A stretch of DNA of 64,000 nucleotides from Obrimoposthia wandeli (taxonomy: Eukaryota), in the NCBI GenBank assembly GCA_977020255.1, contig CDROCS010006690.1, positions 1-64,000 of the forward strand, given 5' to 3'. Positions 1,053 to 19,654 of the stretch are shown here, in pieces. Position 1 is the stretch's first letter; each line of letters opens with the position of its first letter. Below the pieces are notes generated by a model that was given only the letters and a program-made list of their open reading frames with translations, had not been told where the DNA came from and ran no database searches. A program made the position numbers and the translations under genes.

Positions 1053-1334
1053 TACCTCGGGGTTCCAAAAAAGTTACGTCCCGGAACGTATCGATTTTAC
1101 TTAAACAAGCCTCTGGCTGTTGATTTTAGGTTCATCCCTACAAAATCAATCATTCAACTTCAACAAACATGCCCCAAAAACAAAATTTCTCAAAATCCCG
1201 GTTTTTAGTGGGAAACATAATGTATAATTTGGAGCAAGTCTCAGACTATACATTATTATCTATACACAAACTACATGCATAACCAAGGATTAGGAAGGAA
1301 AGAAGGAGGAAAGGATCAATTGTCATAAGTTAGG

Positions 1335-1850
1335 TCAATTGTAATTGTCGGCTGGTTCCGACTGGCCAGGTAGCGCAGGACCTGCTCCAGGGGTAGGTCG
1401 GGAAAGGACGGACTGTCCCCGTTGTACAGGTGTAGTTGTTGGCTCCGGGTTAGGTGTGGGCTCTCGACAAACAGGTCGAAATACTGCCCGTTCATCGCGT
1501 GATTTTCTATCCAGAGACGTCTGGCCTGGAACCACAGTGGCAGTCTCGACTAGACCGCCATCTCTCGCGGATGCCCAGTTGTGTGTCGCGCCGGCGTGCG
1601 AGACACGCAGCCAGCGTGGCAATGTATGCCGCAATGCAGCTGGCAGGCGATCGGGTGCCCTTGTGCCTTCCACGGCTCTGGAGCGTCCATTTGCCAAAGG
1701 GTGTCCGGCACAGTGGACATGTGATATGGCCGGGGTCGAGCCTTGGCCCACAAATAGAAGGCACTCCTCGTGAAATTTGTGACGGCAGCCGACAGGGGAT
1801 GCTGATACCGCCCAAATCTTCTCCATACATACAGAGCACTTCATCTGCAT
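1335..1850 (-). pseudogene. RING-H2 protein 3 (frameshifted)
   Basis: MKCSVCMEKI...GCRHKFHEECL, then WAKARP and ITCPLCRTPF in adjacent frames. Confidence 0.72.
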
Positions 1851-2161
1851 AAGAAAATAACTCCTTTCAATTTGGGGTTCACCGTTCTCATCGTTAATTT
1901 AAATTTTAATTTCAAAACGAGTCCTTAGTTATCTAATCCTACCGAGTTTTGTTTCGATTTTAGGCATGTTTACGCATTCACACTAAGCATAAAATTGTCT
2001 TTTTTAGAAATTCAGTATAATAATTACAATTTCAGTTAAACATCATACATAAAAATGGTAATGGTCAATTTACAGTTCACAAGATTATATAATTATGATT
2101 ACAATTATGGTAGCTAATTTATCGCGGTATGCCATACACAGGGTAGTTCATGATGTCACGT

Positions 2162-2491
2162 TCAAGTCAGAAAGTTACCTTCGATTATTGTTGGGGATTG
2201 GGCTGGCCTGTGCTTCGCTCCTCCACGCAGAACGAGCACCAGCAATCGCAGATGGTTTTTCAGCAGTGTACGATGGGTACCACTGCTTGGAGGCTGTCCT
2301 GGTTGTACACGTAGTGTACTGAGAAGGTCGCTCTGCACATCGGGCAGGTTGGGAAGTCGAGGGATTGTTGCTGTTGGCAATGGGGATCCACGTCTCGAGG
2401 CATTCGACGTGGAAGAGAGGTGGTCGCAGTTGTTGGGCTTGGTGTAGAAGTCCACGATGCTCTCGTAGCAGATGGAACATTCTCCAGACAT
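2162..2491 (-). pseudogene. RING-H2 protein 2 (frameshifted)
   Basis: MSGECSICYESIVDFYTKPNNCDH continues in the neighbouring frame as LFHVECLETWIP. Confidence 0.7.
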
Positions 2492-2499
2492 TACTGTGG

Positions 2500-2849
2500 G
2501 AGGTTGATGTTGAATTTGGGCTCGATTGAGGACTGGTGGTTGTGTGATGTTTACACAAAGTGGTCGGATTTTGTCGATCTGACAAACAGTAATAACACCA
2601 ACACTCTCCGAAATTCTTCCAACAGAATACCACCTGTACATATACATCCTCTTGGTCGGGTTCTAACATGATGAATCTTGCGAATTGTCTTCTGCATACA
2701 GGGCAACAAGGGTATGTTGGATGTCCGAACTGTCCATAAGTTCTGATCCATGTCGATAAACATTCCTCGTGGTGTAAATGGTTTGCAGTTTCGGGTCTTG
2801 TTCTTCGTTCGGTTAGATCTTCCAAACATATTGGGCATTCTTCGGACAT
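2500..2849 (-). CDS. RING-H2 protein 1
   Basis: MSEECPICLEDL...HLHHEECLSTWI...CPVCRRQF. The 3' end is uncertain because of frameshifts. Confidence 0.75.
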
Positions 2850-2972
2850 TCTAAATACATGATGATGATTAATTTCTACATGAGTTTTATATATTTCTAC
2901 TATTTGTACAATCACTTCTAGATATTTCTACATATTTCACACACTAATTTATCTACAACCTCCTCTGACTTA

Positions 2973-4195
2973 TCATATCTTGATTGGAGGCGGAGGTAAG
3001 TCTAATTCCACTTCCTCCATGATGGGTGTGTCACAGCATCGCAATCCTTCGCATTTTCGTCGTACTCTTGGGCATACTTGACTGCCTTTTACGCACACGA
3101 TTGTCAATAGAACCACTGCTGTTGACACTACGGCCATTCCAATTAGGGCATTGACCGCCGTTATTCCGCTGTCTGATGATTTATAATCATACTTCATTTT
3201 GTTGTTTGTCGGTTCGAATGACATTTCCATGGGTTTTGATCGGTTTCCATGTATTATGTCCGATTTTCTAAAAATTCGGGGATTTGGGTGTTTTGTTTCT
3301 GATGGAACAGGTATTATTATTTTGGATTGGAAATGATGTTTGGGATCTAGTGGGATCGTTCCCCTCACTCTTGTCCTCTTAATAATTGTACTTTGGTTTC
3401 TGGGATTTAGCTCTTTTTCTTTCGCTTCTGTCTTTGTTCTGATCACTGTCGGTTTTTTGGAATGGCGTTTACTTTCGATTACCTTTGCCTTCTTTTTTGA
3501 CTAGGATTGGTCTTTTTGGGAATGATTTTCTGGGTTTGATACTTATACCGTATCTACGAAATCGACGGTTCTGGTATCTTAGAGTTATGTAGAATATTTC
3601 ACCTGTTATTATCATGATTATGGTCGAGGTCTCTGTAGTATTACTGGAAATTCGATTACACAGACATTCTGTGTTAAAATGTGGTACTAACATTTGGCTT
3701 TGGATTTCGAATCTGATTCCGCCATCTGGGTTGGGACACATTACTGTTACTCTGTCGGTCTCAGCAATCTGAAAAATATCCTAACGGAATTCCATACGGC
3801 TTTACGTCGTCAACCTGTGATTATACTCCTGTCGACAATTTTCCAGAAGCGCTCATCTCTAGGTAATATTGATGACTGTGTTCGATACTTTGGATAATCA
3901 GCTTCCTCTTTGATATTGTTATCCGTAGGTATAACACTCTTTCATGATACAATAATATTAAATTGTAAACGGGTGTATATTGGTCGATTTTTATTCTGAC
4001 CTGTCGGATGACATACAATTTCTGATCGATATTATCAGTTGCTGACGTCTGTAGATGAATGTCTACTACGTGATTTGTTTTTAGAAGGGGGATTTCTATG
4101 TATACTGCCCGTATTACGTCTTATCTCCATTTACTGATCATGATCTCATAACTAGCCTTGGTAGTGGTGATTTGTATGATCAGCATGATTCCTAT
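2973..4195 (-). pseudogene. Putative type I membrane protein, broken by stops and frameshifts
   Basis: Signal-like IIGIMLIIQITTTKA near 4150-4190. Fragments 3821-4018, 3469-3741 and 2973-3446 follow, the last with TM ALIGMAVVSTAVVLLTIVCV and a PPPP tail. Confidence 0.45.
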
Positions 4196-5105
4196 GATCG
4201 TTCGATTCTAAACTCAGGAACTTCAATGAAACAAGTCAAATTACTCATATAGTACGGTCTTTCCTCGATGTGTTCATATATCGTTGGCTGGTACTCTGGT
4301 GCTGGTTCATCTAAAAATGGTGGTCTTGGTATAATTGTGTTGAATTTTTGTAAGTTCATTTGACCTGTTCGTCTTGCGAGATCATGCCGTTTCTTTTTGA
4401 TCTCAATTCTAACTTTGTACAACAAAACAAGATGAGTAATATTAATATTATAAATCCAATGATCAGTGCGAGTATTGGATTAATCAATTCTAGAATACCG
4501 TAACGTACTGCTGGTATTCCTTTACTCTTGATGGTTAATATTTTAAATTTGTGTGCACTTTGGTTGGATATGTCACTGAAAGTACTATTTTAGTTTGTCC
4601 AAATGTGTAGTCTTCACATGTGACAACATCAATTCCATAATGTCTATTAAGTGTTTTCATTTCGGTCAGCTGGAACTATACATATCCGTCCTGGACATCC
4701 TTTTACACACATGATCATTACAGCTTTACTGTAGGATGTCTTGATTATTTCTAGGGTGTTGTCTAGATTTCTCAAATGTAGATTATATTCGGATAATGTC
4801 ATCATTTCAGCTTTACTGGTCGGCATGGCTTGTAGTACCAATCCAATTACTACTCCATAAATCAATCCTTGTGCAACGGTGCACAGGGCCTTGACTGACC
4901 TTTTGCAAAGGGTTTTAATTATCAATCGTTTGAGAGATATCTGTTTCTGATTAGATCGTTTTGTTATCTGTCGTTGTTTTGACATCTCCTCGATTCCATT
5001 TCTTCCGATAATTAACTGTACCGGTTTACCTTGTATCGTCAACTTTCCGAATCCATTTTTGGCGGACAAGCATGTTTTATGTCCTTCCATCGTTTCAATT
5101 ATCAC
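4192..5105 (-). pseudogene. Putative type I membrane protein, broken by frameshifts
   Basis: Signal-like GLIYGVVIGLVLQAMPTSKA. A frame shift near 4665 gives an ectodomain ending in TM ILALIIGFIILILLILFCC (about 4430-4490). ORF 4192-4425 is a basic and Tyr/Pro-rich tail. Confidence 0.5.
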
Positions 5106-7702
5106 TCTCTTACTTCATACTCACGTGTTTTGATGACATCGCCATCGAATATATACGTTGGTCCTTTTGTATCAGCATCTTTTTGTATTTCCTTTACAAC
5201 TCGTTTTCTTCGCTTGCATCCAGCGAATGTTGTTGATATTCGGTCAAGTGTGCGCTGTCGGTCAGCTTCGTAATCTATTCGAAATTGATTCAGTATTCTG
5301 TTTTGTGGGTAAAATATCGCTTCATTTACTATATTGTCCTCGATCCTTTCGTCTAGATACACAAGCACTTTGTTCGTTGGTCCATTTGGTCTTTTCATCT
5401 TTACAAACTGAAATCTTTTACTGTCGGTTCTCATAGATCGAAGACATTTTCGGATGATCCACACATCAATTAGTCCTAACAACACTAATAGCATCATCAG
5501 TGCCGGTGTATGGTACTGTGTGGTGTAGTTGTGGATTTCGTTGAACCAGGAACTATTTCCGTGGTTGGAGCCTATCTCCTGTGCTCCCGTTATCGGCATT
5601 AAACAGCTTAACAAGCCTATCGCTAGCAATCTTTGGTATTGAAAGCTGGGCACTGTTGTTGTAGCTTCATTTGTTTCTCGTTGTTGTTTCCTCTTTTCGG
5701 TGTATTTCTCTATTTCTCGAACGAGTAACGGTTTGAATTCCGTATTTGGTCTATTCTGTTTGATGTAGACCATCGCTTCTTCTGGCGTGTGACCATGGTA
5801 CTCTACCAACAAGGATACACCTATGGTAGGCGCTAACATTGTACCTTTTTTCTGATATATCAGAACGCCGTTTCCTTCTGTGACTTCAGCTTGGATGGTT
5901 TGAGTCAATTTCGTCAGATGTTGTTGTGCATCGTTTATCTCTCGATTGGAAGCATGTATGTATCGAGTGGTGTCATCTTCAGTATTTTGACATAGACTAA
6001 TTATCTCGTTTCCGACTTCGACAATGTTGATTACTCGGTTGATACTGTGGAACTTTAATCCAGCAGTGTCTATATCTCCTGGATGACATAAAAATACTTT
6101 TGGCATTATCTGTGTAATTTTGTCGACTCCGGCTAAAAATAACCCGGTCAATGATAATGCTTGGAGGAAATTCTTTTCCTTTGGATCCTCAGGAATGTCG
6201 TCCATCCGTCTTTGTTCTTGCAACAGAAGTTGGTAATTTGCCAACTGTCCCAAAAAATTAAGATTTGGGTTTGCAATACTTCTTCTCTCCTGTAGGTATT
6301 TTAGCGCTTCTAGTACCTGCATTCGTCTAGTCTTTATTAGGTATGCTAATACTAGAGTTGCTGATCGAGAAATTCCTTTCTGACAATGTACTAACACTTT
6401 TCCTTGGTTCCGGAGTTCTCTGTGAAGTATTTCGTTTGTTTCTACAAACCATTCGAGAAGATTAGCGTCCATTGAGTCTTTTACTCTTAATGTCATAGCT
6501 CTGATTGTCTGATATTGTGATTTATGACTCATTGTAACGTTGATCACGTATGTTATCCCTTGTTCCAACAGTTTCTTTTCATCTGTTGCATCTTCCACAT
6601 TTCCGAGGTATAACTTATTTGGAATGATCTCACTCATTGGTGGCATTAATTCTGACTCTTCAAGTTTTAGTCTTTCTAATCTCTTCTCTATCTGTTCGTC
6701 GATGTTAGTTAGTTTTGCCAGTTTCTTTCCTCTCAGCATTCGTATTGCTGGAGAGGTATTCATCTTTGTCTCTGATGTCTGTTCCTTTGTTGAGTCTTCT
6801 TCCGACTCGGTCTCTTCTGCAGATTTAATTCGTCTTTCTTGTATATTCTGTTTCACGAATTCTATGTTTTGTCTTTTTCTGCTCTCTTTAGCGAATTCAA
6901 CCTCCATGGTTCTTCCGAATCGCTCTATTATGTTATCTTCGGATTCTGTTGATTCTGTATCGTTACTTTCCGGTTCGCTGTCTTCACTAGACTCGCTCGA
7001 AGGGTATTCTGGTATGTCTGTCTGAACTGAAATTAATGAAGGTGTTAGAATAATTGGATTGATTTCCCCTTCGTATTTGTGAATCGGATACGGTATTACA
7101 CTATCTTTAAGTATCTCAACTTGGAACTGTGCTCCATAGCACATGACAATTGTTTCCAATTTACCCATGATGGACAATCCATCAAAATAGGTAACATTCA
7201 GCTTAGATATCGGTGTCTTCGCATAATTAATTAAGTTTACTCGTATCTCAGTTGATGACGGCCATCGATGTTTTAGTAAAATTATAATTTCGTCGTTTAT
7301 CGATGTAATTACACTTGGTGCGGATGATACTATTTCGGCATGATATTTTGGCTGGTTTGAAGTTGTTACTTGTTCTCGGATCATATTGATTCTTTGTGGT
7401 TTTTTATTTTTAGCTTCCCACTTCCGGTATCCGCTGTCAATGCGTAATTCTGCCGTTGCTTTGATGATTTTATTGTTAGTCACTTCCGGATGGGTTGGCG
7501 AATGGAATCCTTCTATTACGCTCAACCTTACAGATACTTCCGTTTGATCTGTGTCTAACCGGTGAGATTCTGGTATACAACATACAATTGTCTTTCCATC
7601 AAAGTATTTGGTGTCCATCTGACAAATTATCTTTTCAGTGTCAGCGTCGATTAATTGGACTCTCATGATATCTCTTTTCCCATGTGAATTACGTAATACC
7701 AT
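5102..7702 (-). CDS. 866-aa accessory ORF: YFDG repeats, acidic linker, dual-specificity phosphatase, pseudophosphatase, signal/TM segments
   Basis: KLYLGN...ITYVINVT...D...VLVHCQKGISRSATLVLAYL...RRSIANPNLNFLGQL at 6230-6637. A second DSP-like copy at 5700-6122 has IYQKKGTMLA in place of HCxxGxSRS. Confidence 0.9.
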   Translation of the reverse strand: MVLRNSHGKRDIMRVQLIDADTEKIICQMDTKYFDGKTIVCCIPESHRLDTDQTEVSVRLSVIEGFHSPTHPEVTNNKIIKATAELRIDSGYRKWEAKNKKPQRINMIREQVTTSNQPKYHAEIVSSAPSVITSINDEIIILLKHRWPSSTEIRVNLINYAKTPISKLNVTYFDGLSIMGKLETIVMCYGAQFQVEILKDSVIPYPIHKYEGEINPIILTPSLISVQTDIPEYPSSESSEDSEPESNDTESTESEDNIIERFGRTMEVEFAKESRKRQNIEFVKQNIQERRIKSAEETESEEDSTKEQTSETKMNTSPAIRMLRGKKLAKLTNIDEQIEKRLERLKLEESELMPPMSEIIPNKLYLGNVEDATDEKKLLEQGITYVINVTMSHKSQYQTIRAMTLRVKDSMDANLLEWFVETNEILHRELRNQGKVLVHCQKGISRSATLVLAYLIKTRRMQVLEALKYLQERRSIANPNLNFLGQLANYQLLLQEQRRMDDIPEDPKEKNFLQALSLTGLFLAGVDKITQIMPKVFLCHPGDIDTAGLKFHSINRVINIVEVGNEIISLCQNTEDDTTRYIHASNREINDAQQHLTKLTQTIQAEVTEGNGVLIYQKKGTMLAPTIGVSLLVEYHGHTPEEAMVYIKQNRPNTEFKPLLVREIEKYTEKRKQQRETNEATTTVPSFQYQRLLAIGLLSCLMPITGAQEIGSNHGNSSWFNEIHNYTTQYHTPALMMLLVLLGLIDVWIIRKCLRSMRTDSKRFQFVKMKRPNGPTNKVLVYLDERIEDNIVNEAIFYPQNRILNQFRIDYEADRQRTLDRISTTFAGCKRRKRVVKEIQKDADTKGPTYIFDGDVIKTREYEVRE

Positions 7703-7887
7703 TATTACATCGTGGTATTCTTGTTTGAGTCTTTTGGTGTACCATGCAGTATGTGACCACCGGCCGGTTCTTTTTCTTCCTGACTGGCTAGTCCTGCTTC
7801 AGTACTGTCATAGTTCTGCCATGCAACTATGTTTGGTGTCAATGTGATTTCGATTATCACTTTCTCAGTCGTAAACACATTGGAATT

Positions 7888-9396
7888 TTAATAAAGCGCT
7901 GCGACTAGTGTATTCCCGTCATAGTATGACACTCTAAGTTCGCACAGAAATTCGTTTGTCAGTGCATCTTTCACAATGACTTCTTTCGCCACATCTGTTG
8001 GTTGTGTTTTTTCAAAAACAACTATTATCTCTTCGTCTTCTTCTAATATCTCTTGTGGTGCGATGTGTCGGATTACTTCCTTTTCCTCTTGGTACTTCAT
8101 TCTGAGCATACCAATTCTCGCTGGTTTTTTCTCGCTACCACTCGTCATCATGTTTATGTAGTTCTGATCACTTACCATTCGTGTAAGTTTAATGGTATTG
8201 GTATTCGATTTCGATTTCTGTGATCTTAACTCATATCGTGACGCATTATCTTTATTTGGTACTAATTTGCATCGATTTGCATGTACAATCATCGGTTCCT
8301 TGTTCCGATTCTCTTCGTTGATTACTTTCAAATTTGTTGAGGTTGTCTGGATCACCTTGTATGGTCCTTTGTATGGTCTATGAAGTTTAAACGATAGACC
8401 TGGTTCGATGACTGGATAAAATATCATCACTTGATCTCCGACTCTAAATTCATGCGGTTTTGCTTTTTTGTCGTATTGTTCCTTGTAACCTTCTTGATTG
8501 AATTTCAACTTCAATCCGGCTTTGGTCCAAGCATCTTGTAACCTTTCCTTCATGACGACAATGTATTGTTCAGTTTCTAGGTACTGAGATGTTGGCTCGG
8601 TCCACTCCAGATCCATTGGCATATTGTTCTGTCTGAGATACATCAGATAGAATGGTGTGTGACCCGTCGCCTCTCGAACTGAATTCCTGTAAGCATATAA
8701 ACATGAAGGTAAATATTTATCCCAATCCTCTTGCTTGTCTGAGCAATAGGATTGTACCATCATACATAAAGTTTTATTAAACCTTTCCACCAGACCATCT
8801 GTCTGTGGGTGATATGGTGAAGTTTGTAACTTCATGATTCCGAATATCTTCGATACTGCTTTTATGACTTCTCCAGTGAAGTTCTTACCTTGATCCGTTA
8901 ACAATTTTCTAGGCACTCCGTATCGAAATATTATCTCTTCTACTAAGATTTGTGCTATTGTTTCAGCCTTCTGGTTCTGCATGGGATATGCTTCTACCCA
9001 TCTCGTCATGTAATCCGTAAATACTATGACATACTTGTTTCCTTTACTTGATTCTCTCAATGGTCCCAATATATCCATCGCTGTGAATTCCATTGGTGCC
9101 AAGGGAACTGGCATTGGTTTCAGTGGAACTTTAGTACGAGTTCCGGTGTCTTTTCTGGTTAAACATACTTTACATTGTTTACACCATTGTTTTATGTCGT
9201 CTTCCATACCATCCCAATGGTACTTCTCTTTGATTCTGGCTATTGTCTTTCGCCCTGACAGATGTCCTCCTAGTGTTCCGTCGTGATACTGGATCATCAC
9301 TGCTGTTTTCAATGACTTCGGAATTACTACTACTATCTTTCCGACATTATTGACAATATACAAGATGCCTTCTTTTATCGAGTATTTTTTCGTCAT
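7888..9396 (-). CDS. pol: Integrase with C-terminal extension
   Basis: HHCC (HDGTLGGH...CKQC), DILGP, TDQGKNF, YHPQTDGLVERFN and GPY/F (YKGPYKV). Confidence 0.95.
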   Translation of the reverse strand: MTKKYSIKEGILYIVNNVGKIVVVIPKSLKTAVMIQYHDGTLGGHLSGRKTIARIKEKYHWDGMEDDIKQWCKQCKVCLTRKDTGTRTKVPLKPMPVPLAPMEFTAMDILGPLRESSKGNKYVIVFTDYMTRWVEAYPMQNQKAETIAQILVEEIIFRYGVPRKLLTDQGKNFTGEVIKAVSKIFGIMKLQTSPYHPQTDGLVERFNKTLCMMVQSYCSDKQEDWDKYLPSCLYAYRNSVREATGHTPFYLMYLRQNNMPMDLEWTEPTSQYLETEQYIVVMKERLQDAWTKAGLKLKFNQEGYKEQYDKKAKPHEFRVGDQVMIFYPVIEPGLSFKLHRPYKGPYKVIQTTSTNLKVINEENRNKEPMIVHANRCKLVPNKDNASRYELRSQKSKSNTNTIKLTRMVSDQNYINMMTSGSEKKPARIGMLRMKYQEEKEVIRHIAPQEILEEDEEIIVVFEKTQPTDVAKEVIVKDALTNEFLCELRVSYYDGNTLVAALY

Positions 9397-10412
9397 TTCA
9401 TCATTTCATCTCCTTTCACCAACAATTCTTTGATTAGACTCAGTTCTTCATCTTCTTTCTGTTCTTTGATGATCTCTTTGTCTATTTTACCCGTCTTTAG
9501 CAAAATCGTCAGTAGATTTGCTTCTCCTTTTTGGTCATTGGTTTCATCTTCTTCTGGAATGATGTTTCCTTTTTCATCTACATTTGTCAATCTCGATAAA
9601 CAATCTGCGTTGCCATTCGACTTTCCGGTTCTATAACGGATTTCTAGATCGAATTCGGCCAATTTTAGAAACCATCTGTTTAATCTACTCATCTCATCTC
9701 TATGTTTATACAAGAACTGTAGTGGTTTGTGATCTGTATATAGGAATACTTTTTGTCCTAGCAAGTAGTGTCTGTACTGTCTACATGAATACACTATGGC
9801 TAGACATTCCTTTTCGATAACAGAGTATCCTCTTTCGGCTCTGTTTAATCCTCTACTCGCATACGCGATGACGTGTTCTCTTCCTTCGTCATCCTCTTGT
9901 CCCAATACTGCTCCTACAGCATAGTTACTTGCATCTGTCATAAGTATGAATTGTCGGTTTATATCTGGAAACGCTAATATTGGTGCTTTTATCAGTCTTT
10001 CTTTTAAATGCTCGAACGCTTGTTGGGCTTCTTCTCCCCATATGAACTTCTCATCTTTTCTCGTCAACTTTCTCAATGGTGTTGCTATATCTGAAAAATG
10101 TTCAACAAATCGTCTATAATAATTCGCCAGACCTAAAAAACTCTGTATCTCCTTAACAGTCTTTGGCGCTAAATGCGCTTTTACTTTCTCGATCTTTGCT
10201 GGATCAGGTCGAATGCCTTCTTTCGATACTATATGTCCTAAAAATGTTACTCGCTCTTTAGCCCATTCGCATTTTGTAGGTTTAACTTTTAATTTAGCGT
10301 TTTCCAGTCTTTTAAATACAACTTCAAGATTTTTTAAATGTTCTTCGAACGTTTTCGAAAATATTATTATGTCATCGATATAAACCATCGTGTTTGCACG
10401 ATGCGAGTACAA
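9393..10412 (-). CDS. pol: Reverse transcriptase C-terminus and RNase H (frameshifted from upstream ORF)
   Basis: VYIDDIIIFS, FLGHIVS, SFLGLANYYRRFV, TDASNYAVGAVL, EKECLAIV, TDHKPL, NADCLSR. Confidence 0.95.
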   Translation of the reverse strand: MYSHRANTMVYIDDIIIFSKTFEEHLKNLEVVFKRLENAKLKVKPTKCEWAKERVTFLGHIVSKEGIRPDPAKIEKVKAHLAPKTVKEIQSFLGLANYYRRFVEHFSDIATPLRKLTRKDEKFIWGEEAQQAFEHLKERLIKAPILAFPDINRQFILMTDASNYAVGAVLGQEDDEGREHVIAYASRGLNRAERGYSVIEKECLAIVYSCRQYRHYLLGQKVFLYTDHKPLQFLYKHRDEMSRLNRWFLKLAEFDLEIRYRTGKSNGNADCLSRLTNVDEKGNIIPEEDETNDQKGEANLLTILLKTGKIDKEIIKEQKEDEELSLIKELLVKGDEMMK

Positions 10413-13400
10413 AATTCATGCAACGCTGAAATGTTGCTGGAGCTCCTGTCAGTCCGAATGGCATCTTTTCGCATTCGTATAATCCATCTCCGCAGGAAAA
10501 GGCTGTTTTGTGTTTATCCTCTTCCTCTATCTCGATTTGCCAGTATCCACTCTGCAAATCTAATGTTGTAAAATAATCTGAATTACCCAATTTATCGAGC
10601 ATCTCTTCGATTCTAGGTAATGGATACACATCTTTTCTTGTGATCTTGTTCAGTTCTCTGAAATCTATACAGAATCTCATTTTCCCATCCTTCTTTTTTA
10701 CCAACACCACAGGTGCTGAGAATGGCAAAAAACTCGGTCTAATTACTCCTGTTTTAGACATATCTTCAATCTGACTTTTTACTTCATCTTGTAACTGTAA
10801 TGGTACTCGATATGGTCTTCTTCTGACTACTTTGTCTTTTGTCAGTGGTATTGTATGTTTTATGACAGGTGTTTCTCCTATGTCATATGGATTTTTTGCA
10901 ATTACTTTCGGAAATTTATGTATTAGATCAAGTAATTGTTTCTTTTCTCTAGTTGTCAGTCTTTCTGATTGGATTACTATTTCTTCGTAATCATTCGTAT
11001 CTTTATCGAGTTTCATAGTGCATACAGTGGAATTCTCCATCTGTGCTATCTTTCCCAACCTCATTCCTCTGTATAATAGGATGTCATTGTTGGTTGTATT
11101 CATCAGTCTAACTGGTATTTTGTGGTTTTCGATCAGGCATACTGTACTCACAACTGGTAATTCGTATTTCTCTATGAAATCTCGTGATGGTTCGAACACA
11201 ACTGGTCCTTTATCTTCTGATAATGTGTGACCTTGAATAAGAAATTGCGATCTTTTACCGATTTTTATAGGATTCTCTATAATTACATCAATTTGGTTTA
11301 TTTGTCTGTTTGATGTGCTATCCTTCAATCTTGGATCTTGTAAATCAATACTTATCCCTTTAAGTTGTGATAGTACATCCATTCCTAAAATTGTAGGTTC
11401 AGGACATTCTTTCATGATTCTAACTGGTATAGTGATCGTATTACGTCCAATTATAAATGTACATGGTAATATTCCCGTTACTTTTACAGGGTCTCCATTG
11501 ACCGATACCAAGAATTCGTCTGGTTCTGCCATTGTTCGTTTCTGTTCCTCTGTCAAACAGTCTTCACTTACTATCGAAGCTACAGCACCTGTATCAATTA
11601 AGGCTTTTACTCTTAAATTATTTACTCTAATGATAGCTGCTGGTCGCTGTGCTCCATTTATGTTTCCCATATGGTATATTGTATTTATCGAATTATTACA
11701 CTCTGTCAGTCCACTTCCTATGTTTGGATAGTGAAATCTAATGTTTCTCACTTGTCGATCTATTATTCTTCGACAAATCGGACATGATACCATTTCATTC
11801 GCACATCTCCGACATGTTCTTACATGTCCGCATGGTAGAAAGGCAACTTCTATTTTGTTGACCATGCAAACTGCGCATTCCGGATCTTCTAGTACGTATT
11901 CTAGTTCATTTATGTACTCTTTCTCTTTTGTTTCAATTGTACTGTCATCTTTATCTCGCAGTAATTCAAAAATCGATCCGTATCCGTTTCGCGTAGTTTT
12001 TATTTTTAATTCTACCAATTCTCTGATTCTTTCTGCTTCTTTTGGATATAACCTTCTCACGAATGACACTACCGGTGTGTCTTGTTGAGCCAAAATCTCT
12101 TTCCGTGTGATTTGGTATTCGATTATACATTCGGTTTTCTGTTCTTTTTGCTTTATTTTGTTTTTAAAAGTACAAAATTCGCAAAATTCATGATGTAAAA
12201 TTTTCTTAGGTAGCTCAAGAGTATATCTGTCGATAATTCGTTCTTTTTTACACTTGTGGCATTTAATTACGTCTTTACCATCCTTTTTTATAGCAAAAAG
12301 TCCCTTTTTTGCCAATTTTTTAAGTCTTGGGTCTTCGAAGGTTATTTCTCGATACTGTTCGTCACATTCGTTCACTTCTCGCATAACTTCGAATATATCT
12401 TCAATTCGACTATTCGTTATTACTCTACCTGTTATTAGAGCTGATTCTCCTTTCGGAATCCCGTCACTGTAATCGAAATCGGGTGCTTTTCCCGTTTGGA
12501 TTTCTGGTACGTTTGACGTTTTCAGTTTCAAAAGAAATGGACAATTTGGTGCATCTCTTTTATGACGTCTCATTGGGTTTTCATTCTGTTCCCATTCTCT
12601 AAACTTTACTCTACACCATACGCATCGTACTACTATCTCCTGACCATAACTGCTTGTCGCGTTTAACATTTCTAAACCTGATCTTGCCATTTTACGTGCC
12701 ATTCCTTTTGAATAGTACTGTTCTAATATATTTCGTCTCTTTCTCTCGAATCTCATGGGATCCCTTTCTGACAGATTCACATATGTTATTTTTCTCCTCG
12801 TCATCTCTTGTGGTCCGAGGTTTACGTTTTTGTAGTGAAGTATCGACTTTACTAGCGCTTCCTGTTTTTTGTCTTGGTACGAATTTCCCATACGGAACGT
12901 AGTGTATTTTTCCTTTTCGACTATAGGTCCTCTCAACATTTTTATCTCTCTCACTGAACTGTCATTCTTATAACTCTTGTTGTTTGGTAGTATAATTATT
13001 CCTTCAAACATTCGTATTACGTCCATCCCAATCATGACTGGACTACCGCAATCTGTGAATATTCTAGCATTTAATTGTAATGCTCTTCCATCGATATTCA
13101 ATGAACATTTCAGTGTTCCTTCCGACACTACATCTGTACCATTCACGTTAACAAATGTCTGTTTTCTAGGACATACTTCTCTTAATTCTTTTGATGACAA
13201 GATTTCTTTACTTAGTACTGATACTGCTGATCCGGTATCAACTTCGGCAAGATATTCTCTTCCGTTCAATGTTACTGCTACTTGTGGTGGAGCATTTGGA
13301 TTCTCATTTGATATTCTAGATTTCAGAATTCTTCTGGAATTATCTTTTTTGTCTTTTTCCTCTGCTTGTGGAATTTCACTGTAGCTCACTTTAGGCCATC

Positions 13401-16400
13401 TTATCATTAAGATGCCTCTCTTGAATTTTTCCTTCTCTTCCTTCAATTCCTTCATTGGATATAGGTTTAACGCCACTTCTTCCTTGTCTGGTAATGGAAT
13501 CTTTGGTTTTCCTGGTATCTTTGCATATACTTCTGGACTATCATTATCGTCGTCGTTGTCGTCTCGATAGTTTCTTGGTTCTCGCATCATGGTTCTCGTT
13601 TGGTGTTGTTCCTTCTTGAGGGCTCGCAACTCGTTCTCGTGATGATGATGCATTAGATATTTTGCTAAAAATGGAAAACATCCAATTATAAGTTGCCAGG
13701 TGATTCCGGTTATCCTGTATAAACTATACGTAGACAACACCTGGGCTATAATTACCTGCACAAATTTAATTATAACATAAATACCTATGATACCCGAAAA
13801 TAATTGTCCTAAGACAAGGAATTTCCCCCACATCTTTCTAAGTGTCTGATGTGCTGCTTCCTTGAAATGACTTGGCGATAATAACATATCGAAATTCGCA
13901 TATCTCGCTCCTGGCGGTAATGCTCGATGTACCATCTCCGTAAGTACTCTGGCTCTTCTTACTGGAAACATTATTTCGTTCCACGCCGCTTTTAAATCTT
14001 TTTCATTGTACAATCCTGCGTTCTCCATATTTTCCATCGCTTGGAATTTCATTTTACCTTTAAGATTCGTCATTCTTATCATCGCTGGGGTTGTCGTTGG
14101 CTTCCGATCAGGTAACGTTATCCATAGATTATTCGTCATCTGATATTCAGGTGCCATTATATTAGAGCAGCTGATTTCTTTAGTTGGAGTGTCTTTTGGA
14201 AGTAACATTCTCGTGATTGGTTCAACAAAAAGATCTTTTAAATTATACGTTACTGCCAATTCGCTCGTACATCGATCTGTTTTTCTCAACTGTACCTCTA
14301 CTTTATTACACTTGTAAGTATATAATACTTCTCCCATGGTTTTAGCAAATACTCCTTCATCCAAGGGTAATAATGGTGCTACCATGTCTGGATTCGTAAT
14401 AGCTAATGCTAATTTTGTTCTTACGATCTCTTTGTTTAACTGGCAATCTCTTTCGATCATCATCCGATATAACTGTTCCATTTGCATCAATCCTTTATGA
14501 TAATAGAAATCAATTTTATTATTAAAATACGTGTGTAGCTGCATATCTTTTGGTTTTAGCTTGGTTTCTGCCAATGCTATTGCTTCTTTAGACAAAACTA
14601 TTCCTGGATAGTTTGTAGTACTAACAGTCATTCCGCATCGCGCTTTGTTTCTCTTTTTAATAAATATCAATCCTTCTTCTATTGATGTTGCCATTAACAG
14701 TGTAGGTGTTTTTGTCATTGGAATTGGTCTTGTTTCATTTAGCAATCCTTTTCCTACTTTATTATACAGGAACCCTTCTCCATCTTTATTATACAGGAAT
14801 CCTTTTATTTTATTAAAGCTAATCTCTTTCAAAAATACTAAAGAGCATTGCTTCGGATTTATGTTATACACAATTGTGGATTCACCTGTAAAACAAGATG
14901 CATCTGTCATTTTACATTCTGGATACTTCATCATTAGTTGTGTCTTTTTATCAAAATTGGCGGTCCATGTTTTTAATTCGATTTTGTAAGTTACATCCAT
15001 TACTAACTCAGATACTTTGGTTGCACTCACGTTTTTTGTTTCTCCGTCACAAGATCCATCAGCCCATCGTTGTCCGACTCTCGTGACTGTTTCGTATCGT
15101 CTCACTCCAATTTTTACTTCAGGTTTGTAATTCTTGTCTACCTCTATCGTTCCCGTTCGAAATGCATCTTCGCAATCTCTCGGCAAAACCTTATGTGCCT
15201 TGTACGGTGTGGTAGGTGTGATTTCTGACATAAAACTTCTATGGCCACAATAGAATTCGTGATAACTTGAATGGATTGAACATTCTTTCACTTCTACTTG
15301 TACTTTATCAACATCCTGATACACAAAGTAGTTTTCAACACCTTGAACTTCTAGTTTTGACGGTTGTGATTCTGGACAGTCTTCGCTGTCAAGCAGTGAA
15401 TACGTTTGTCCCATCTTTGGTATGCTACAGTCATATGCTATCAATCCTGATGCCTGTTGCATTCCCATGAACATTACTAACATCATCATCATCATTGTTG
15501 TGGACATATTTGGTTGATTGTTTCTCTCTTTCGGACGGTATTGTTTATTTTCCTTTTGACGATTCTCATGACATTGTTCGTCATCGTCTTCATTCATTTC
15601 CACAATGGTTTTAGCGTAGTCACTTAATTTTGCCCAACCTCCATTTTCGTCAATTCGTCTCTGTAATACATTCTCGATCAAATACATCGCTTCATTTATT
15701 CCTTGTTTGACTTCGTGAGGTTGGCTCGTTCGTTCCGTCAATTGGAAACATAGATATGTGATCGCTGTAATTAACTTTTTATTTGTAGTCTGGTTTCCAC
15801 ATAGTCTCGCTAAAACTTCACCGTCATAAAATCTATCTATCGATGCATGGTATACATGATTCGCGGTCATTCTCTTTACTGCAGACATCTGTGATCTGAC
15901 TGCTTTAGTCAAATTGTCTGTTATATCGGTTGTTTCATCTCTGTACATTTTAAACAACTTCGGCTTCACTTGCCTGAGAATTCCCGTAAGTATATCTTTA
16001 CTACTTGGAGTTTCCGAATTCATATCACCTCTGATATCTTCATTCCTCTCTGCACTATACTGCTCTAATGACGCTGCTAACTGTCCAATACTTAGATGTC
16101 TCTCTTCATCAGTTTGTGGTGCTGTTAGAACATTTCGTAATATACTTTCGCCTTTTCTAGGTCTTCCAGGTCCTCTTCGAAAATACTGATACTCAGTTTG
16201 ATTCTCTCCTGGATCATACGTTTCACCATTATACTGTATCTCTTGACTTGGTCCTTCTTCATGGCCAATCTCTTCACTTTGTCGCATCATTTGCTCTGCT
16301 TGTCTATCTTTGTATGCGGCATGCCAAATTGGTGAATCCAAATCTACAATCTCGGAGACTTCGTCTTCTCCTACTAGTTGGGTTACGGTTTCGTTTTGTC

Positions 16401-16641
16401 TCACTTGGTTAGCTGTATCCGTGACTTCATCTTGTCTGATTGGAATTATATCTGGTTCTGGTGGCACCTCGACCACTGGAGTTGTCAACTCATTTTCTAA
16501 ATTCATGTCTTGTAATTCAGTTACGTACGGTTCTGGTGTGGATGTCTTGTTCCAAGCTTCAGCTACATCATTATCTCCGCTTTCACTTGAACTGTCTAAA
16601 ATTTCTATAGGCGTTTTTATCATTTCTAACGCAGAATTCAA
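10372..16641 (-). CDS. 2089-aa polyprotein: AT-hook, Bcl-2-like, Env, protease 1, BIR x2, RING, protease 2, RT N-terminus
   Basis: Motifs in order: PGRPRK, IDENGGW, signal peptide+LIAYDC, VDTGS/IGMD, CX2CX16HX6C, C3HC4, IDTGA/LGMD, RFCIDFRELN, LDLQSGYWQI, MPFGL. Confidence 0.93.
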   Translation of the reverse strand: MNSALEMIKTPIEILDSSSESGDNDVAEAWNKTSTPEPYVTELQDMNLENELTTPVVEVPPEPDIIPIRQDEVTDTANQVRQNETVTQLVGEDEVSEIVDLDSPIWHAAYKDRQAEQMMRQSEEIGHEEGPSQEIQYNGETYDPGENQTEYQYFRRGPGRPRKGESILRNVLTAPQTDEERHLSIGQLAASLEQYSAERNEDIRGDMNSETPSSKDILTGILRQVKPKLFKMYRDETTDITDNLTKAVRSQMSAVKRMTANHVYHASIDRFYDGEVLARLCGNQTTNKKLITAITYLCFQLTERTSQPHEVKQGINEAMYLIENVLQRRIDENGGWAKLSDYAKTIVEMNEDDDEQCHENRQKENKQYRPKERNNQPNMSTTMMMMMLVMFMGMQQASGLIAYDCSIPKMGQTYSLLDSEDCPESQPSKLEVQGVENYFVYQDVDKVQVEVKECSIHSSYHEFYCGHRSFMSEITPTTPYKAHKVLPRDCEDAFRTGTIEVDKNYKPEVKIGVRRYETVTRVGQRWADGSCDGETKNVSATKVSELVMDVTYKIELKTWTANFDKKTQLMMKYPECKMTDASCFTGESTIVYNINPKQCSLVFLKEISFNKIKGFLYNKDGEGFLYNKVGKGLLNETRPIPMTKTPTLLMATSIEEGLIFIKKRNKARCGMTVSTTNYPGIVLSKEAIALAETKLKPKDMQLHTYFNNKIDFYYHKGLMQMEQLYRMMIERDCQLNKEIVRTKLALAITNPDMVAPLLPLDEGVFAKTMGEVLYTYKCNKVEVQLRKTDRCTSELAVTYNLKDLFVEPITRMLLPKDTPTKEISCSNIMAPEYQMTNNLWITLPDRKPTTTPAMIRMTNLKGKMKFQAMENMENAGLYNEKDLKAAWNEIMFPVRRARVLTEMVHRALPPGARYANFDMLLSPSHFKEAAHQTLRKMWGKFLVLGQLFSGIIGIYVIIKFVQVIIAQVLSTYSLYRITGITWQLIIGCFPFLAKYLMHHHHENELRALKKEQHQTRTMMREPRNYRDDNDDDNDSPEVYAKIPGKPKIPLPDKEEVALNLYPMKELKEEKEKFKRGILMIRWPKVSYSEIPQAEEKDKKDNSRRILKSRISNENPNAPPQVAVTLNGREYLAEVDTGSAVSVLSKEILSSKELREVCPRKQTFVNVNGTDVVSEGTLKCSLNIDGRALQLNARIFTDCGSPVMIGMDVIRMFEGIIILPNNKSYKNDSSVREIKMLRGPIVEKEKYTTFRMGNSYQDKKQEALVKSILHYKNVNLGPQEMTRRKITYVNLSERDPMRFERKRRNILEQYYSKGMARKMARSGLEMLNATSSYGQEIVVRCVWCRVKFREWEQNENPMRRHKRDAPNCPFLLKLKTSNVPEIQTGKAPDFDYSDGIPKGESALITGRVITNSRIEDIFEVMREVNECDEQYREITFEDPRLKKLAKKGLFAIKKDGKDVIKCHKCKKERIIDRYTLELPKKILHHEFCEFCTFKNKIKQKEQKTECIIEYQITRKEILAQQDTPVVSFVRRLYPKEAERIRELVELKIKTTRNGYGSIFELLRDKDDSTIETKEKEYINELEYVLEDPECAVCMVNKIEVAFLPCGHVRTCRRCANEMVSCPICRRIIDRQVRNIRFHYPNIGSGLTECNNSINTIYHMGNINGAQRPAAIIRVNNLRVKALIDTGAVASIVSEDCLTEEQKRTMAEPDEFLVSVNGDPVKVTGILPCTFIIGRNTITIPVRIMKECPEPTILGMDVLSQLKGISIDLQDPRLKDSTSNRQINQIDVIIENPIKIGKRSQFLIQGHTLSEDKGPVVFEPSRDFIEKYELPVVSTVCLIENHKIPVRLMNTTNNDILLYRGMRLGKIAQMENSTVCTMKLDKDTNDYEEIVIQSERLTTREKKQLLDLIHKFPKVIAKNPYDIGETPVIKHTIPLTKDKVVRRRPYRVPLQLQDEVKSQIEDMSKTGVIRPSFLPFSAPVVLVKKKDGKMRFCIDFRELNKITRKDVYPLPRIEEMLDKLGNSDYFTTLDLQSGYWQIEIEEEDKHKTAFSCGDGLYECEKMPFGLTGAPATFQRCMNFVLASCKHDGLYR
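11350..11650 (-). other. Aspartic protease 2 (canonical pol position)
   Basis: ALIDTGAVASIV ... TILGMD, followed by the usual Gypsy spacer and RT. Confidence 0.9.
11761..11878 (-). other. IAP-type C3HC4 RING finger
   Basis: CAVCMVNKIEVAFLPCGHVRTCRRCANEMVSCPICRRII. Confidence 0.92.
12170..12760 (-). other. BIR domain plus degenerate second BIR
   Basis: CVWC-x16-H-x6-C (exact BIR zinc spacing, with W...P..H...PNCPF). The second is CHKC-x18-H-x6-C, preceded by LAKKGLF. Confidence 0.85.
13004..13290 (-). other. Aspartic protease 1
   Basis: LAEVDTGSAVSVL ... VMIGMD. Confidence 0.85.
13650..15507 (-). other. env: Envelope glycoprotein, chuvirus-G/gB-like (class III fusogen-like)
   Basis: Signal peptide MSTTMMMMMLVMFMGMQQASG then LIAYDC. 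The Cys-rich ectodomain includes GEVLYTYKCNKVEV, CTSELAV and EPITR, has N-glycosylation sequons, and ends in a hydrophobic C-terminal anchor. Confidence 0.8.
15610..16005 (-). other. Bcl-2-like domain within polyprotein
   Basis: BH2-like LQRRIDENGGWAKLSDY at about 15610-15665. Upstream helices fall at BH1-, BH3- and BH4-like spacing, but these matches are weak. Confidence 0.6.
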
Positions 16642-16759
16642 TATCTCGGTTAATCCTTCATTATCTACTAACTCTTGACGTCCTACAGTGATGACATCAA
16701 TTTTTCCTCTAATTCATTTCCTATCGGATATCCAAACTCGACTGGTACGTCCTCATCAT

Positions 16760-18364
16760 CTAGTGATCTCCTTTATAATGGAACAACATATTCATTCCAT
16801 CAATTTCAAGTTTCTCAGCCAACTTTTTCCGAATCGTTTTCATTGTTTGATACACGTTAAGTTTTTCATGTATTATCTGTCCGGAAATTAATCGAAGTGA
16901 AATTTTCATCGTTCCTTTTTGGTTTGATCTCTGTACATAACGACCATAACCTTTCAGTAGTCCTCGGGGTACTTCTTTGTAACCCAAGTTATCATGACTA
17001 TGTTTAACCAATTCTGCACGCACTTCTTCCAATCGGTGCACTTTAATTGTTTGCAATTTGGCCAGAACTTCTGGAGCTTCACTCGTTTCATCTAACGGTT
17101 GATTTAACGTCTCCTTAGCTTCACTAATTATCTTTTTTACATTTTCCATACTCGTAGCATTTCTTGCTGCTTCTACATGATCAGTCATAGGTTGTGCGTT
17201 ACACGTTTTCTCTATTGGTGTCTCATACGCTTCTAATATTCTATTCATTAAATCATTCATCTCTTCTCTCGAATGTAGACTTTTCTCTTGTTTCGACAAC
17301 GTAGATGAATTTGCCATCTTTGTATGTGGTGAATCTTTAATTATTCCCAACATTCGTTCAAATTTACTATCACTATCTTCAAAATCTATTTCGCGTCGAA
17401 GCTCGGTCTCGCGATTCCTATCACTGTCATCGTTTACATAACTAAAATTTCCTTTCGGTTTCGGCGAACTCTCACGACTATTTGTCTTGTCGACATTATT
17501 ATTATTATATCTACCAGAATTATTATATCTCTCAGCTCCTTGCTGTCCTACGTAATTATTGTATCTCTCAGCTCCTTGCTGTCTATCTGCATAGTTATTA
17601 TATCTACCTGGTGACTGTTGTCTATCTGTATACTGATTATTCAGTCTCCATGGCTGTGGAGTATATCCACCACCTCTATTCCATGGCGGAGGTGAATTAT
17701 ATCCTCTATAATTATTTCCAAAATTATTATTACCGAAATTATTATTTCCAAATCTGTTAGCTCCGAACTCTTTACTTCTCGTACAATCTCTCGAATAGTG
17801 ACCCATTTGTTTACACGTGTAACACATTATTCTCCCTCGAATATCTATCTTATTTTGTTCATCTTCGAACTGTACTCGACGACTATTTTGTCTATTATCA
17901 TAGCGTCCTCTAAAATCATTTCTTCGGAAATTCGATTCAAAACCGCTTCCTCGATTATTGAATCTTCCGTCGCTATTTCCTGTATTATTTCCAAATCGAG
18001 AGTCACTTCGCTCTCCTCTGTTGGCGTTATAATTCCTATCGTCTCCTCTCCAAGGTTGGCGATTTCCTGAATTATCTCTATTAAATCTATTCCTGGAATC
18101 ATCTCTATTTCTATTCCACGAATCATTATTATTTCTACCTCTTGAATCATCTCGATTCCTGTTCCAAGACTCACTATTATTTCTACCTCTCGAATCATCT
18201 CGATTCCTACTTCGGAAATTATCTCTATTTCCGTTACTGGATTCATCTACTTTTTCAAACTTATTTTGTCCATAATTTCGATTCTGAAAATTACTCGGTT
18301 CTGTTTTATTCACGAAGACCTTTGTCTTATCGTCGTCACCTGCAGTCATTGCGTAGATTGCCAA
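16760..18364 (-). CDS. gag: Gag C-terminal part: N/R/G-rich repeats, CCHC zinc knuckle, C-terminal ubiquitin-like domain
   Basis: CYTCKQMGHYSRDC at 17783-17824. It overlaps the previous ORF by 19 nt, and one extra A in the A5 run would fuse them. Confidence 0.85.
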   Translation of the reverse strand: MAIYAMTAGDDDKTKVFVNKTEPSNFQNRNYGQNKFEKVDESSNGNRDNFRSRNRDDSRGRNNSESWNRNRDDSRGRNNNDSWNRNRDDSRNRFNRDNSGNRQPWRGDDRNYNANRGERSDSRFGNNTGNSDGRFNNRGSGFESNFRRNDFRGRYDNRQNSRRVQFEDEQNKIDIRGRIMCYTCKQMGHYSRDCTRSKEFGANRFGNNNFGNNNFGNNYRGYNSPPPWNRGGGYTPQPWRLNNQYTDRQQSPGRYNNYADRQQGAERYNNYVGQQGAERYNNSGRYNNNNVDKTNSRESSPKPKGNFSYVNDDSDRNRETELRREIDFEDSDSKFERMLGIIKDSPHTKMANSSTLSKQEKSLHSREEMNDLMNRILEAYETPIEKTCNAQPMTDHVEAARNATSMENVKKIISEAKETLNQPLDETSEAPEVLAKLQTIKVHRLEEVRAELVKHSHDNLGYKEVPRGLLKGYGRYVQRSNQKGTMKISLRLISGQIIHEKLNVYQTMKTIRKKLAEKLEIDGMNMLFHYKGDH

Positions 18365-19158
18365 TGCTGCATTATTATATTTTTCTCAATCTCTCTCGCC
18401 TTTCGTACGGCGTTATCAAAATCATTTGTATCCGATACTGCTAATAACACTTTAATATCCTTTTTCAATCCTCCTCTAAATATATCTAACAAGACCTCTG
18501 CCATTTCATTTTGGTTCCGGTCATTTTCCGCTGCTTGTGCTTCTTGAGGTACAGGAATACCGTCCTGATTTCTCATTATTCTTCTTGGGTACGCTCTTGC
18601 GGCCAAGGTTCTCAAAACATACGCGTATTCATTCACGCCTTCATCATGTTTCTGTTTCCGTTCTCTCATGAGTCGCTTATTTACTTTGGCTAAGTCTCCT
18701 AATACCAATTTTCCAATAAAAGCATTTTCCAACGTTGGCCAGTCTAAACGTTCTGCTTCTGTCAAATGTTTATACACTTCAAGTGCTAATCCGGTTAAAT
18801 GTGCCTGTACTCTGACACATTTTTCTTTATCGTTCCATCCTTGAACATCTGCACAACTCGAATATTCTGCGAGGAAGTCACAAATACTTTCCTCATCTCC
18901 TTTAAATTTTGTAATCTGCAATGATCCTGAAAAATTGGGTCTCAACGTCGCATTTAAAGCTTGTGCCAACTGCTCGGCATTCATGTCACCTACATTATTT
19001 CCTGCATTAATATCTGCTTGAGCTCCTGGGTGAGCCATATCTTCAATTATATCGTCTTCAACTATTTCTTCAATATTATTCAACGGAACTTCCTCAATCA
19101 CTACTGGATTGGCAATTTCAAATTCTTCTGGGTCTATGTCACCAAATAATTCAGTCAA
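18346..19158 (-). CDS. gag: Gag, capsid-like N-terminal part
   Basis: Retrotransposon-gag pattern KFKGDEESICDFLAEY...WNDKEKC...LTGLALEVY...WPTLENAF...RKQKHDEGVNEYAYVLRTLA...FRGGLK. First ATG at 19038. The frame is open up to about 19390. Confidence 0.85.
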   Translation of the reverse strand: MTELFGDIDPEEFEIANPVVIEEVPLNNIEEIVEDDIIEDMAHPGAQADINAGNNVGDMNAEQLAQALNATLRPNFSGSLQITKFKGDEESICDFLAEYSSCADVQGWNDKEKCVRVQAHLTGLALEVYKHLTEAERLDWPTLENAFIGKLVLGDLAKVNKRLMRERKQKHDEGVNEYAYVLRTLAARAYPRRIMRNQDGIPVPQEAQAAENDRNQNEMAEVLLDIFRGGLKKDIKVLLAVSDTNDFDNAVRKAREIEKNIIMQHWQSTQ

Positions 19159-19429
19159 ATTAAAACTGCCGGTTGAAACCGCTGATTGATCAACGTCTCT
19201 TTCTGATACGTTTTCTTCGACTCTAGTCTTTTTTGTTACTTTGTTATCTGCTTGGGGAACCTGTTCAATTCGGTTAACTTTATTATTATTTATCTCTTCC
19301 TTGGGAATCTGACTTTGTCTTCTAGTATTAAACGCGGGTCCTTTTCTATTATCCGTTGTCTTATCAATTATGTATTCGTTTACGATATCAATTTACTTAT
19401 TATTTTTTATCTTATTTCACAATTCTTGT

Positions 19430-19650
19430 TTTATGATTTTTTATCTCTTTAATTAGTTCGAGGACAGAGTCTCCCGACTTAACCTATTCAATTAATTACT
19501 TCGAGTATCAATCCACTCGATTCTCACTTTATCAAATTTATTTACGATTTTATCTTTTTAATTAGTTCGAGGACAGAGTCTCCCGACTTAACTTATTCAA
19601 TTAATTACTTCGAGTATCAATCCACTCGATTCTCACTCTATCAAATTTAC
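19430..19650. repeat. About 109-bp tandem duplication in the retroelement leader
   Basis: attagttcgaggacagagtctcccgacttaac... starts at both 19452 and 19561. Confidence 0.9.
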
Positions 19651-19654
19651 TGAC

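Follow-up and report, generated by a model that had tools for sequence, protein, structure and literature searches.

A multi-copy Ty3/Gypsy element of Obrimoposthia wandeli with a candidate cell-survival and signalling cargo

The 64,000-nucleotide stretch of Obrimoposthia wandeli DNA analysed here, referred to as the window (assembly GCA_977020255.1, contig CDROCS010006690.1, positions 1 to 64,000 of the forward strand), carries at its beginning a real multi-copy Ty3/Gypsy element, which is neither a nest of insertions nor a chimera. Gag, a ubiquitin-like domain (Ubl), a Bcl-2-like domain, env, a protease (PR), a BIR-BIR-RING module of the inhibitor of apoptosis (IAP) type, a second protease (PR2), reverse transcriptase (RT), RNase H, integrase (IN), a phosphatase pair and a membrane tail are all encoded in one frame of ~5,480 codons, downstream of which lie three RING-H2 open reading frames (ORFs). 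Judged from its sequence, the element appears to be autonomous, to have been amplified recently and massively, and to belong to the Burro-type (GAG-ENV-POL) Ty3/Gypsy elements. A preliminary description had recognised an enveloped Gypsy unit bounded by long terminal repeats (LTRs), with Bcl-2, IAP, phosphatase, Ubl and RING cargo, which is confirmed by copy comparison and Pfam; the phosphatases and "three membrane proteins", which it had treated as separate genes, are in fact the in-frame tail of one polyprotein.

Anatomy and copies of the element

The element lies on the minus strand, with all named domains at the places listed below. The span first proposed for it (1335..19158) was too short, as the 5′ LTR occupies 22973-20384 and the 3′ LTR extends from 1052 past the contig start; with the contig start falling inside the 3′ LTR, the total length of ~24 kb is an extrapolation.

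20384..22973, minus strand: 5′ LTR, ~2.6 kb, TG...CA ends, with 38-bp (34 copies), 29-bp and 45-bp arrays
20358..20375, minus strand: primer-binding site, starting with TGG 8 nt after the LTR end, which we take to be tRNA-Met-like
19439..20328: 5′ leader, with 109-, 49- and 20-bp tandem arrays
16970..19392, minus strand: Gag, with a retrotrans_gag core and CCHC (Pfam E 0.01 and 5e-6) and an Arg/Asn/Gly-rich region
16690..16930, minus strand: Ubl, terminal diglycine absent; the window copy has a frame break near 16760
15598..15945, minus strand: Bcl-2-like domain, BH2-type GGW kept, BH1 NWGR not kept
13550..15504, minus strand: env with a signal-like hydrophobic segment, a Monjiviricetes-type fusion glycoprotein with C-terminal membrane segments, between gag and pol
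13018..13281, minus strand: first retroviral-type protease, DTG motif (Pfam)
12532..12760, minus strand: BIR1, Pfam E 2.8e-10, zinc ligands C-X2-C-X16-H-X6-C intact
12172..12363, minus strand: BIR2, degenerate, C-X2-C-X18-H-X6-C, a weak match (Pfam E 0.007)
11755..11886, minus strand: IAP-type C3HC4 RING, Pfam E 2.1e-11, matching the cIAP1 RING at E 6e-11
11356..11649, minus strand: second protease of retroviral type, with a DTG motif and 31% identity to the first
9651..10701, minus strand: RT and RNase H (Pfam); frame-broken in the window copy near 10390
8260..9324, minus strand: integrase (Pfam); window copy frame-broken just upstream, near 9400
7050..8250, minus strand: three tandem ~100-aa repeats between integrase and phosphatase, 25-27% identical in alignment
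6230..6613, minus strand: dual-specificity phosphatase of the MAP-kinase phosphatase (MKP) type, Pfam DSPc E 2.2e-41, with catalytic Asp, Cys and Arg
5708..6094, minus strand: pseudophosphatase, E 1.2e-6, without the catalytic Cys and Arg, yet conserved
2976..5638, minus strand: polyprotein tail, three membrane-spanning and signal-like segments; several frame breaks in the window copy
2555..2849, minus strand: RING-H2 ORF a, ~99 aa
2190..2490, minus strand: RING-H2 ORF b, ~101 aa, sharing 38% identity with ORF a; its frame is broken in the window copy
1316..1850, minus strand: RING-H2 ORF c, of two types among copies, 64% identical; frame-broken in the window copy
1..1052, minus strand: first 1,052 nt of the 3′ LTR; the contig begins within its 38-bp array

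The features that place the unit in Ty3/Gypsy are paired LTRs with TG...CA ends, a primer-binding site, a target duplication and the order PR-RT-RNase H-integrase, and the start and end of its LTRs are common to other copies. The two LTRs of the window copy (6-1052 against 21927-22973) are 91.5% identical, with 43 mismatches and 48 gap positions, differences that probably reflect poor sequence at the contig end. The only other 100% phosphatase match among the matches listed is on a second contig, which breaks off within an element; the LTR head of that element is 100% identical and its 3′ flank repeats the four bases preceding the 5′ LTR in the window. This is probably the same insertion, assembled twice.

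At least 150 copies are present in the genome, as judged from two protein searches in which the best 150 of >11,000 first-look candidates each were scored, and there may be a thousand copies or more. All 150 scored Bcl-2-domain matches are 100% identical and all 150 phosphatase matches 99-100%, while 40 of the 40 phosphatase-region matches listed are full length at 98-100%, and element bodies are ~98% identical between copies. On at least 28 contigs the Bcl-2 and phosphatase matches are, by eye, co-linear on the same strand and 9.2-9.4 kb apart, as in the window. The longest open frame, which spans 5,478 codons and reaches from gag through the whole membrane tail, was found in one of the scored copies, and three of them have open frames of >4,900 codons.

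Twenty fetched 9.8-kb stretches align with the env-to-tail part of the window at 91-98%, some with internal deletions (~1.0 kb in L015, ~5.4 kb in L021 and ~0.2 kb in L027, around BIR1/BIR2 or from gag to protease). The whole stretch is open in two of them and the integrase-to-phosphatase junction in 15; the other 18 assembled copies are frame-broken, which weighs against the reading of an autonomous element. A frame change near 7,700-7,800 occurs in 5/20 copies, as in the window, and the window breaks near 10390, 9400, 5110 and 4660 are private to it in comparison with 19/19 copies. Where the window is broken in the gag region (near 18350 and near 16760), the frame is open in all four other copies compared.

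The cargo and its conservation

The domain assignments made earlier hold up in Pfam, PDB profile and fold searches, some of them weakly. The Bcl-2-like domain alone has a weak Pfam match (E 0.056); a word-indexed homolog search with this region found nothing, and an Atlas search returned unrelated families only. A family profile of five sequences, from whose alignment one of the five library matches (P0004, a repetitive unrelated protein) was excluded, matches Bcl-xL at 6e-5, and among the matches listed 60 of 60 PDB rows belong to the Bcl-2 family. The single-sequence model of the region was unusable (predicted local distance difference test, pLDDT, 39), and with the family-based model (pLDDT 54) Bcl-2 proteins rank first and fill 46 of 47 Foldseek rows, none of them at E<=0.001. 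In a wider fold search with the pLDDT-54 model the top six matches are Bcl-2 proteins at Z 8.0-7.2, the best with a root-mean-square deviation of 2.9 over 103 aligned residues. The nearest neighbours in sequence and fold are the pro-survival proteins Bcl-xL, KsBcl-2, DPV022, GIV66 and A179L. In four of the five library matches, which are related elements, and in one further relative, the Bcl-2 domain directly precedes the env signal segment. Each of these lines is moderate, and together they make a convincing case for a predicted Bcl-2 fold, not for a function.

The IAP module is flanked by the two retroviral proteases. Gag has one CCHC knuckle (~17824-17780) and is frame-broken in the window copy near 18350, env matches Pfam PF24664 at E 1.9e-94, and the evidence for the Ubl is weak but consistent (Pfam E 0.016; best single-domain PDB match E 6e-4). 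Between the protease and RT lies a conserved region of ~90 codons, in which Pfam and PDB sequence searches found no dUTPase-like family. The post-integrase repeats match no named family in Pfam and PDB searches; a likeness to the Ig-like TIG/DBB fold is our assumption.

Catalytic Cys and Arg of the phosphatase are kept in 20 of 20 copies and Asp in 19 of 20. Its best PDB matches, with Asp, Cys and Arg aligned, are DUSP10, 2, 4, 16, 1 and 8 (best E 2.7e-24), and since these are cellular MAP-kinase phosphatases, the sequence points to capture from an animal host rather than from a DNA virus, contrary to the earlier view of the enzyme as a DNA-virus-like tool. The tail probably consists of type I membrane proteins; its Atlas matches to viral glycoproteins (0.79-0.85, below threshold) are a lead only, and it has no strict PPxY motif. 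Read from another copy, the three RING-H2 ORFs match Pfam at E 2.8e-9, 5e-9 and 2.7e-7.

Selection was assessed with variants present in at least two sequences among 19 copies and the window (L024 was excluded for poor alignment). These shared variants comprise 195 synonymous and 27 non-synonymous changes, a pooled ratio of non-synonymous to synonymous polymorphism (pN/pS) of 0.04, against 0.18 for singletons. The phosphatase has 12 synonymous and 3 non-synonymous shared variants (pN/pS 0.07), the pseudophosphatase 13 and 0 (pN/pS 0) and the post-integrase repeats 29 and 5 (0.05); the counts for BIR1 (4 and 3, 0.18) and BIR2 (6 and 3, 0.11) are small. In pairwise comparisons, four for each region, pN/pS is 0-0.07 for the Bcl-2 domain, 0-0.09 for the Ubl and 0.18-0.47 for most of the tail, while RING ORF a has zero synonymous differences and hence gives no selection estimate. 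By these ratios, purifying selection at the level of the element maintains the cargo, and with it the phosphatase copy that has lost its catalytic residues.

LTR diversity and recombination

Four other copies diverge from the window 3′ LTR after ~160-450 nt, into different arrays of 57, 56, 45 and 67 bp. The U3 cores (LTR positions 301-600) were compared in 19 of 20 3′-LTR stretches, namely the window, L029-L032 and L054-L068, with L061 dropped because its stretch holds no LTR head. Despite ~98% identical bodies, 158 of the 171 pairs of cores have no match at E<=1e-8, and the 19 copies fall into 18 groups at a strict threshold or 9 by single linkage on any match. In five copies each core has a tandem array of its own (38, 57, 56, 45 and 67 bp), and all 19 LTRs start with a shared head. 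Two elements carry cores 100% identical to the query in both LTRs, each with a 4-bp target duplication; since these cores are identical within their own LTR pair and recur elsewhere, they have been replicated and are not flanking DNA. The element is, on this sequence evidence, recently active. First-look candidates, which are not copy numbers, amount to 137 for the window core and 4,059 for the shared LTR end.

Bodies differ between copies by a median of 1.4-2.1% and have a mosaic appearance. Four-gamete incompatibility, again without L024, rises from 0.47 at <100 nt to 0.73-0.75 at >300 nt, and between the distance matrices computed for five segments there is no correlation (Spearman -0.28 to 0.22). 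In the simplest reading, a body of recent origin would have been joined by frequent recombination to many U3 cassettes; part of the mosaic signal may, however, come from assembly chimeras, which could inflate the evidence for recombination. Target duplications of 4 bp were found in two of five same-contig LTR pairs, in addition to one cross-contig match for the window copy; because only two of the five pairs matched, some copies may be mosaics produced by assembly or by ectopic recombination. The three pairs without a matching duplication are L043/L044, L050/L051 and L041/L042. The 5′ flank of one of these pairs recurs as the 3′ flank of another pair, which is on a different contig, and this hints at mis-joined or ectopically recombined copies.

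Two artefactual explanations need to be weighed against these results. The LTR diversity could stem from other elements nested at the 3′ end or from assembly errors in tandem arrays, in keeping with the three unmatched pairs, in one of which the two LTRs match the window core differently, and with contigs that often end in these arrays. We consider this very improbable, as the two elements with the same unusual core in both LTRs have matched target duplications, the two LTRs of a third share one 84% variant, every core tested is found again at further loci and the shared head is universal among the LTRs compared. Still more remote, to the point of being negligible, is the idea that independent insertions nested in one another, or a chimeric assembly, gave rise to the window copy and that its cargo is foreign to the element. 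The copy does lie at the end of its contig and its frame is broken many times, but the check for the same cargo elsewhere, run on other copies, found all 20 aligned from env to tail, the 3′ ORFs in 4/4 copies checked and the gag-Ubl-Bcl-2 part in 4/4. Moreover, integrase and cargo share a frame, and the cargo is under purifying selection. Copy comparison thus refutes this idea.

The diversity has a practical side, in that classifiers relying on LTRs will split a family like this one, whose U3 regions are mostly unrelated although the bodies are 98% identical. It may also be relevant to the tissue-specific expression of transposons that has been reported for planarians (PMC8532177).

The rest of the window holds the following features.

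29503-30672, minus strand: 389-codon open frame, no Pfam family matched
37203-38338: Tc1/mariner-like transposase remnants (HTH and DDE_3 matches)
41309-43368: 2-kb DNA transposon carrying a fragment of a MULE transposase; inverted repeats of 127 nt
46887-48370: pieces of decayed LTR retrotransposon, including an integrase core
52852-53238: match to Pfam IPK (E 1.6e-12), probably an inositol polyphosphate kinase exon of the host

Proposed role of the cargo and relation to known elements

In the proposed mechanism, the two element proteases and host signal peptidase would cut the polyprotein, with cleavage sites and topology predicted from hydropathy. The products would include a Bcl-2-fold protein, anchored in the endoplasmic reticulum by the env signal segment directly after it (five relatives keep this order of Bcl-2 and env signal), a baculovirus-like BIR-BIR-RING IAP from between the two proteases, an MKP-type phosphatase paired with the pseudophosphatase, whose dead copy could act as adaptor or regulator, and small type I membrane proteins. 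The phosphatase would damp JNK/p38-type stress signalling, and the RING-H2 ligases, with other cargo, would ubiquitinate host factors and limit cell death, so that a cell making a huge polyprotein, an envelope protein and reverse transcripts would be kept alive and quiet. Survival and stress damping as the role of the cargo is considered fairly probable.

Several observations weigh against this role. The BH1 glycine of Bcl-xL is replaced in 5/5 aligned sequences, with the basic residue kept; the Bcl-2 fold matches fall short of Foldseek E 0.001, and their Z-scores may reflect a common helical arrangement. Aligned with cIAP1 BIR3, BIR1 shows Arg and Asp in place of Glu and Trp and keeps an acidic residue, at positions that we take to be those of the peptide groove. 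Upstream of the phosphatase Pfam finds no rhodanese/MAPK-docking domain, so that any substrate is putative. The preliminary description had inferred a block of both mitochondrial and caspase-level death; given the changes in the Bcl-2 and BIR motifs, such a block may occur, but it is softer than that description had it.

The kit might instead mainly rewire innate-immune or stress signalling, or remove restriction factors, without directly blocking Bax/Bak or caspases. Poxviral Bcl-2-fold signalling inhibitors use the fold as a scaffold, and type I BIRs bind TRAF or TAB adaptors; the Bcl-2 fold of the element would then be a scaffold of this kind and BIR1 would act like type I BIRs. Such a role would suit the changed BH1 motif in all five family members, the altered groove of BIR1 beside a degenerate BIR2, and four RING ligases with an MKP-type phosphatase, which point to signalling and degradation. 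Against it, the best sequence and fold neighbours of the Bcl-2 domain are pro-survival proteins, and anti-apoptotic IAPs of baculoviruses have a BIR-BIR-RING layout. In favour of it, a MATH/TRAF domain is present in Burro1 (PMC6431247), which again fits signalling. On balance we regard this alternative as rather unlikely, and it and the preferred role in survival and stress damping are not mutually exclusive. A bolder picture, offered tentatively and given somewhat less than an even chance, is that of a retroelement resembling a complex endogenous virus, which would silence stress and death signalling with a captured host phosphatase and pseudophosphatase, an IAP, a Bcl-2 protein and three ligases, and which would persist as a recombining swarm that pairs a uniform body with dozens or more unrelated U3 cassettes. 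If this is true, the varied cassettes would allow expression in many cell types or escape from sequence-specific silencing.

By every structural feature tested the element appears to be of Burro type, as had been suspected: it has a ~5,000-aa polyprotein, an in-frame mononegavirus-like env, a Ubl followed by a BCL2-like domain before env, and a BIR. The Burro section of PMC6431247, on which this comparison draws throughout, describes a polyprotein of 4,873-5,140 aa with gag, Ubi2/SUMO-like and BCL2-like domains, an env in the same frame, BIR and ankyrin; interference with apoptosis and ubiquitination is already proposed there. Burro/GYPSM1 of Schmidtea mediterranea and a Dugesia tigrina relative share with the present element the ~5,000-aa polyprotein with CCHC gag, Ubl, BCL2-like domain and BIR, an env between gag and pol that resembles mononegavirus fusion proteins, the order PR-RT-RH-IN, long LTRs with tandem repeats and a high copy number. 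In contrast, the ankyrin and MATH/TRAF domains of Burro, variable among its members, have no Pfam match here, its CCHC knuckles number two or three rather than one, and it is >30 kb long, compared to ~24 kb. At the place of the dUTPase-like domain of Burro, between protease and RT, lies the conserved ~90-codon region noted above, for which Pfam and PDB sequence searches gave no match. Beyond what that Burro section mentions, the present element has a second protease, the phosphatase and pseudophosphatase, the membrane tail, three RING-H2 ORFs and many U3 types.

The cell-death kit is thus largely known already from Burro, and the view that the whole combination was undescribed fails for Bcl-2, BIR, Ubl and env, while it stands for the phosphatase pair and the RING-H2 trio, for which no report was found. 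The word "phosphatase" is absent from PMC6431247, and a literature search, beyond whose reach the original Burro description lay, returned no report, as judged by title or abstract, of a phosphatase-carrying retroelement, a RING-H2 trio or such U3 diversity. What appears to be new is the phosphatase pair, together with the second protease, the RING-H2 trio and the diversity of U3. Cellular MAP-kinase phosphatases (DUSP10/MKP5, DUSP2, 4, 16, 1 and 8) have the same catalytic domain, whereas the phosphatase of the element lacks a rhodanese/docking domain and stands in tandem with a pseudophosphatase inside a polyprotein. Among 85 protein matches examined for phosphatase-carrying relatives none had an env or BIR annotation, a metagenome scan for such relatives gave one unrelated 2.2-kb contig, and a viral-contig scan with env gave none. 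One catfish protein (P0018) is annotated with RT and DSPc and may be a gene-model fusion.

GAG-ENV-POL errantiviruses with an env of the herpes simplex virus (HSV) gB type are known from Platyhelminthes, Nematoda and Bryozoa (PMC13524379), and have the same gene order. By eye, the env ectodomain of the present element resembles six S. mediterranea sequences of that study and is near-identical to none of them, and the words BIR, phosphatase, apoptosis and accessory do not occur in its main text. Database relatives P0091-P0096 are 35-39% identical in the env region; P0091 has gag, Bcl-2, env and ankyrin, and in P0095 and P0096 a full gag-env-pol frame continues past integrase into a signal segment, a cysteine-rich region, a membrane segment and a PPxY motif. 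Membrane cargo behind the integrase may thus be typical of this group in general. In seven scanned relatives, several of them partial, no BIR or phosphatase was found, and none matches the tail or phosphatases of the present element. Mosaic copies are shared with the Arabidopsis retrotransposon Onsen, whose copies are intra-family recombinants (PMC5668417), whereas here the U3 cores are mostly unalignable and the bodies 1-2% apart. Set beside these systems, the element adds phosphatase control of signalling to the cell-death and ubiquitin cargo known for Burro, and the conservation of this cargo makes the proposed meddling of such elements with host survival testable domain by domain.

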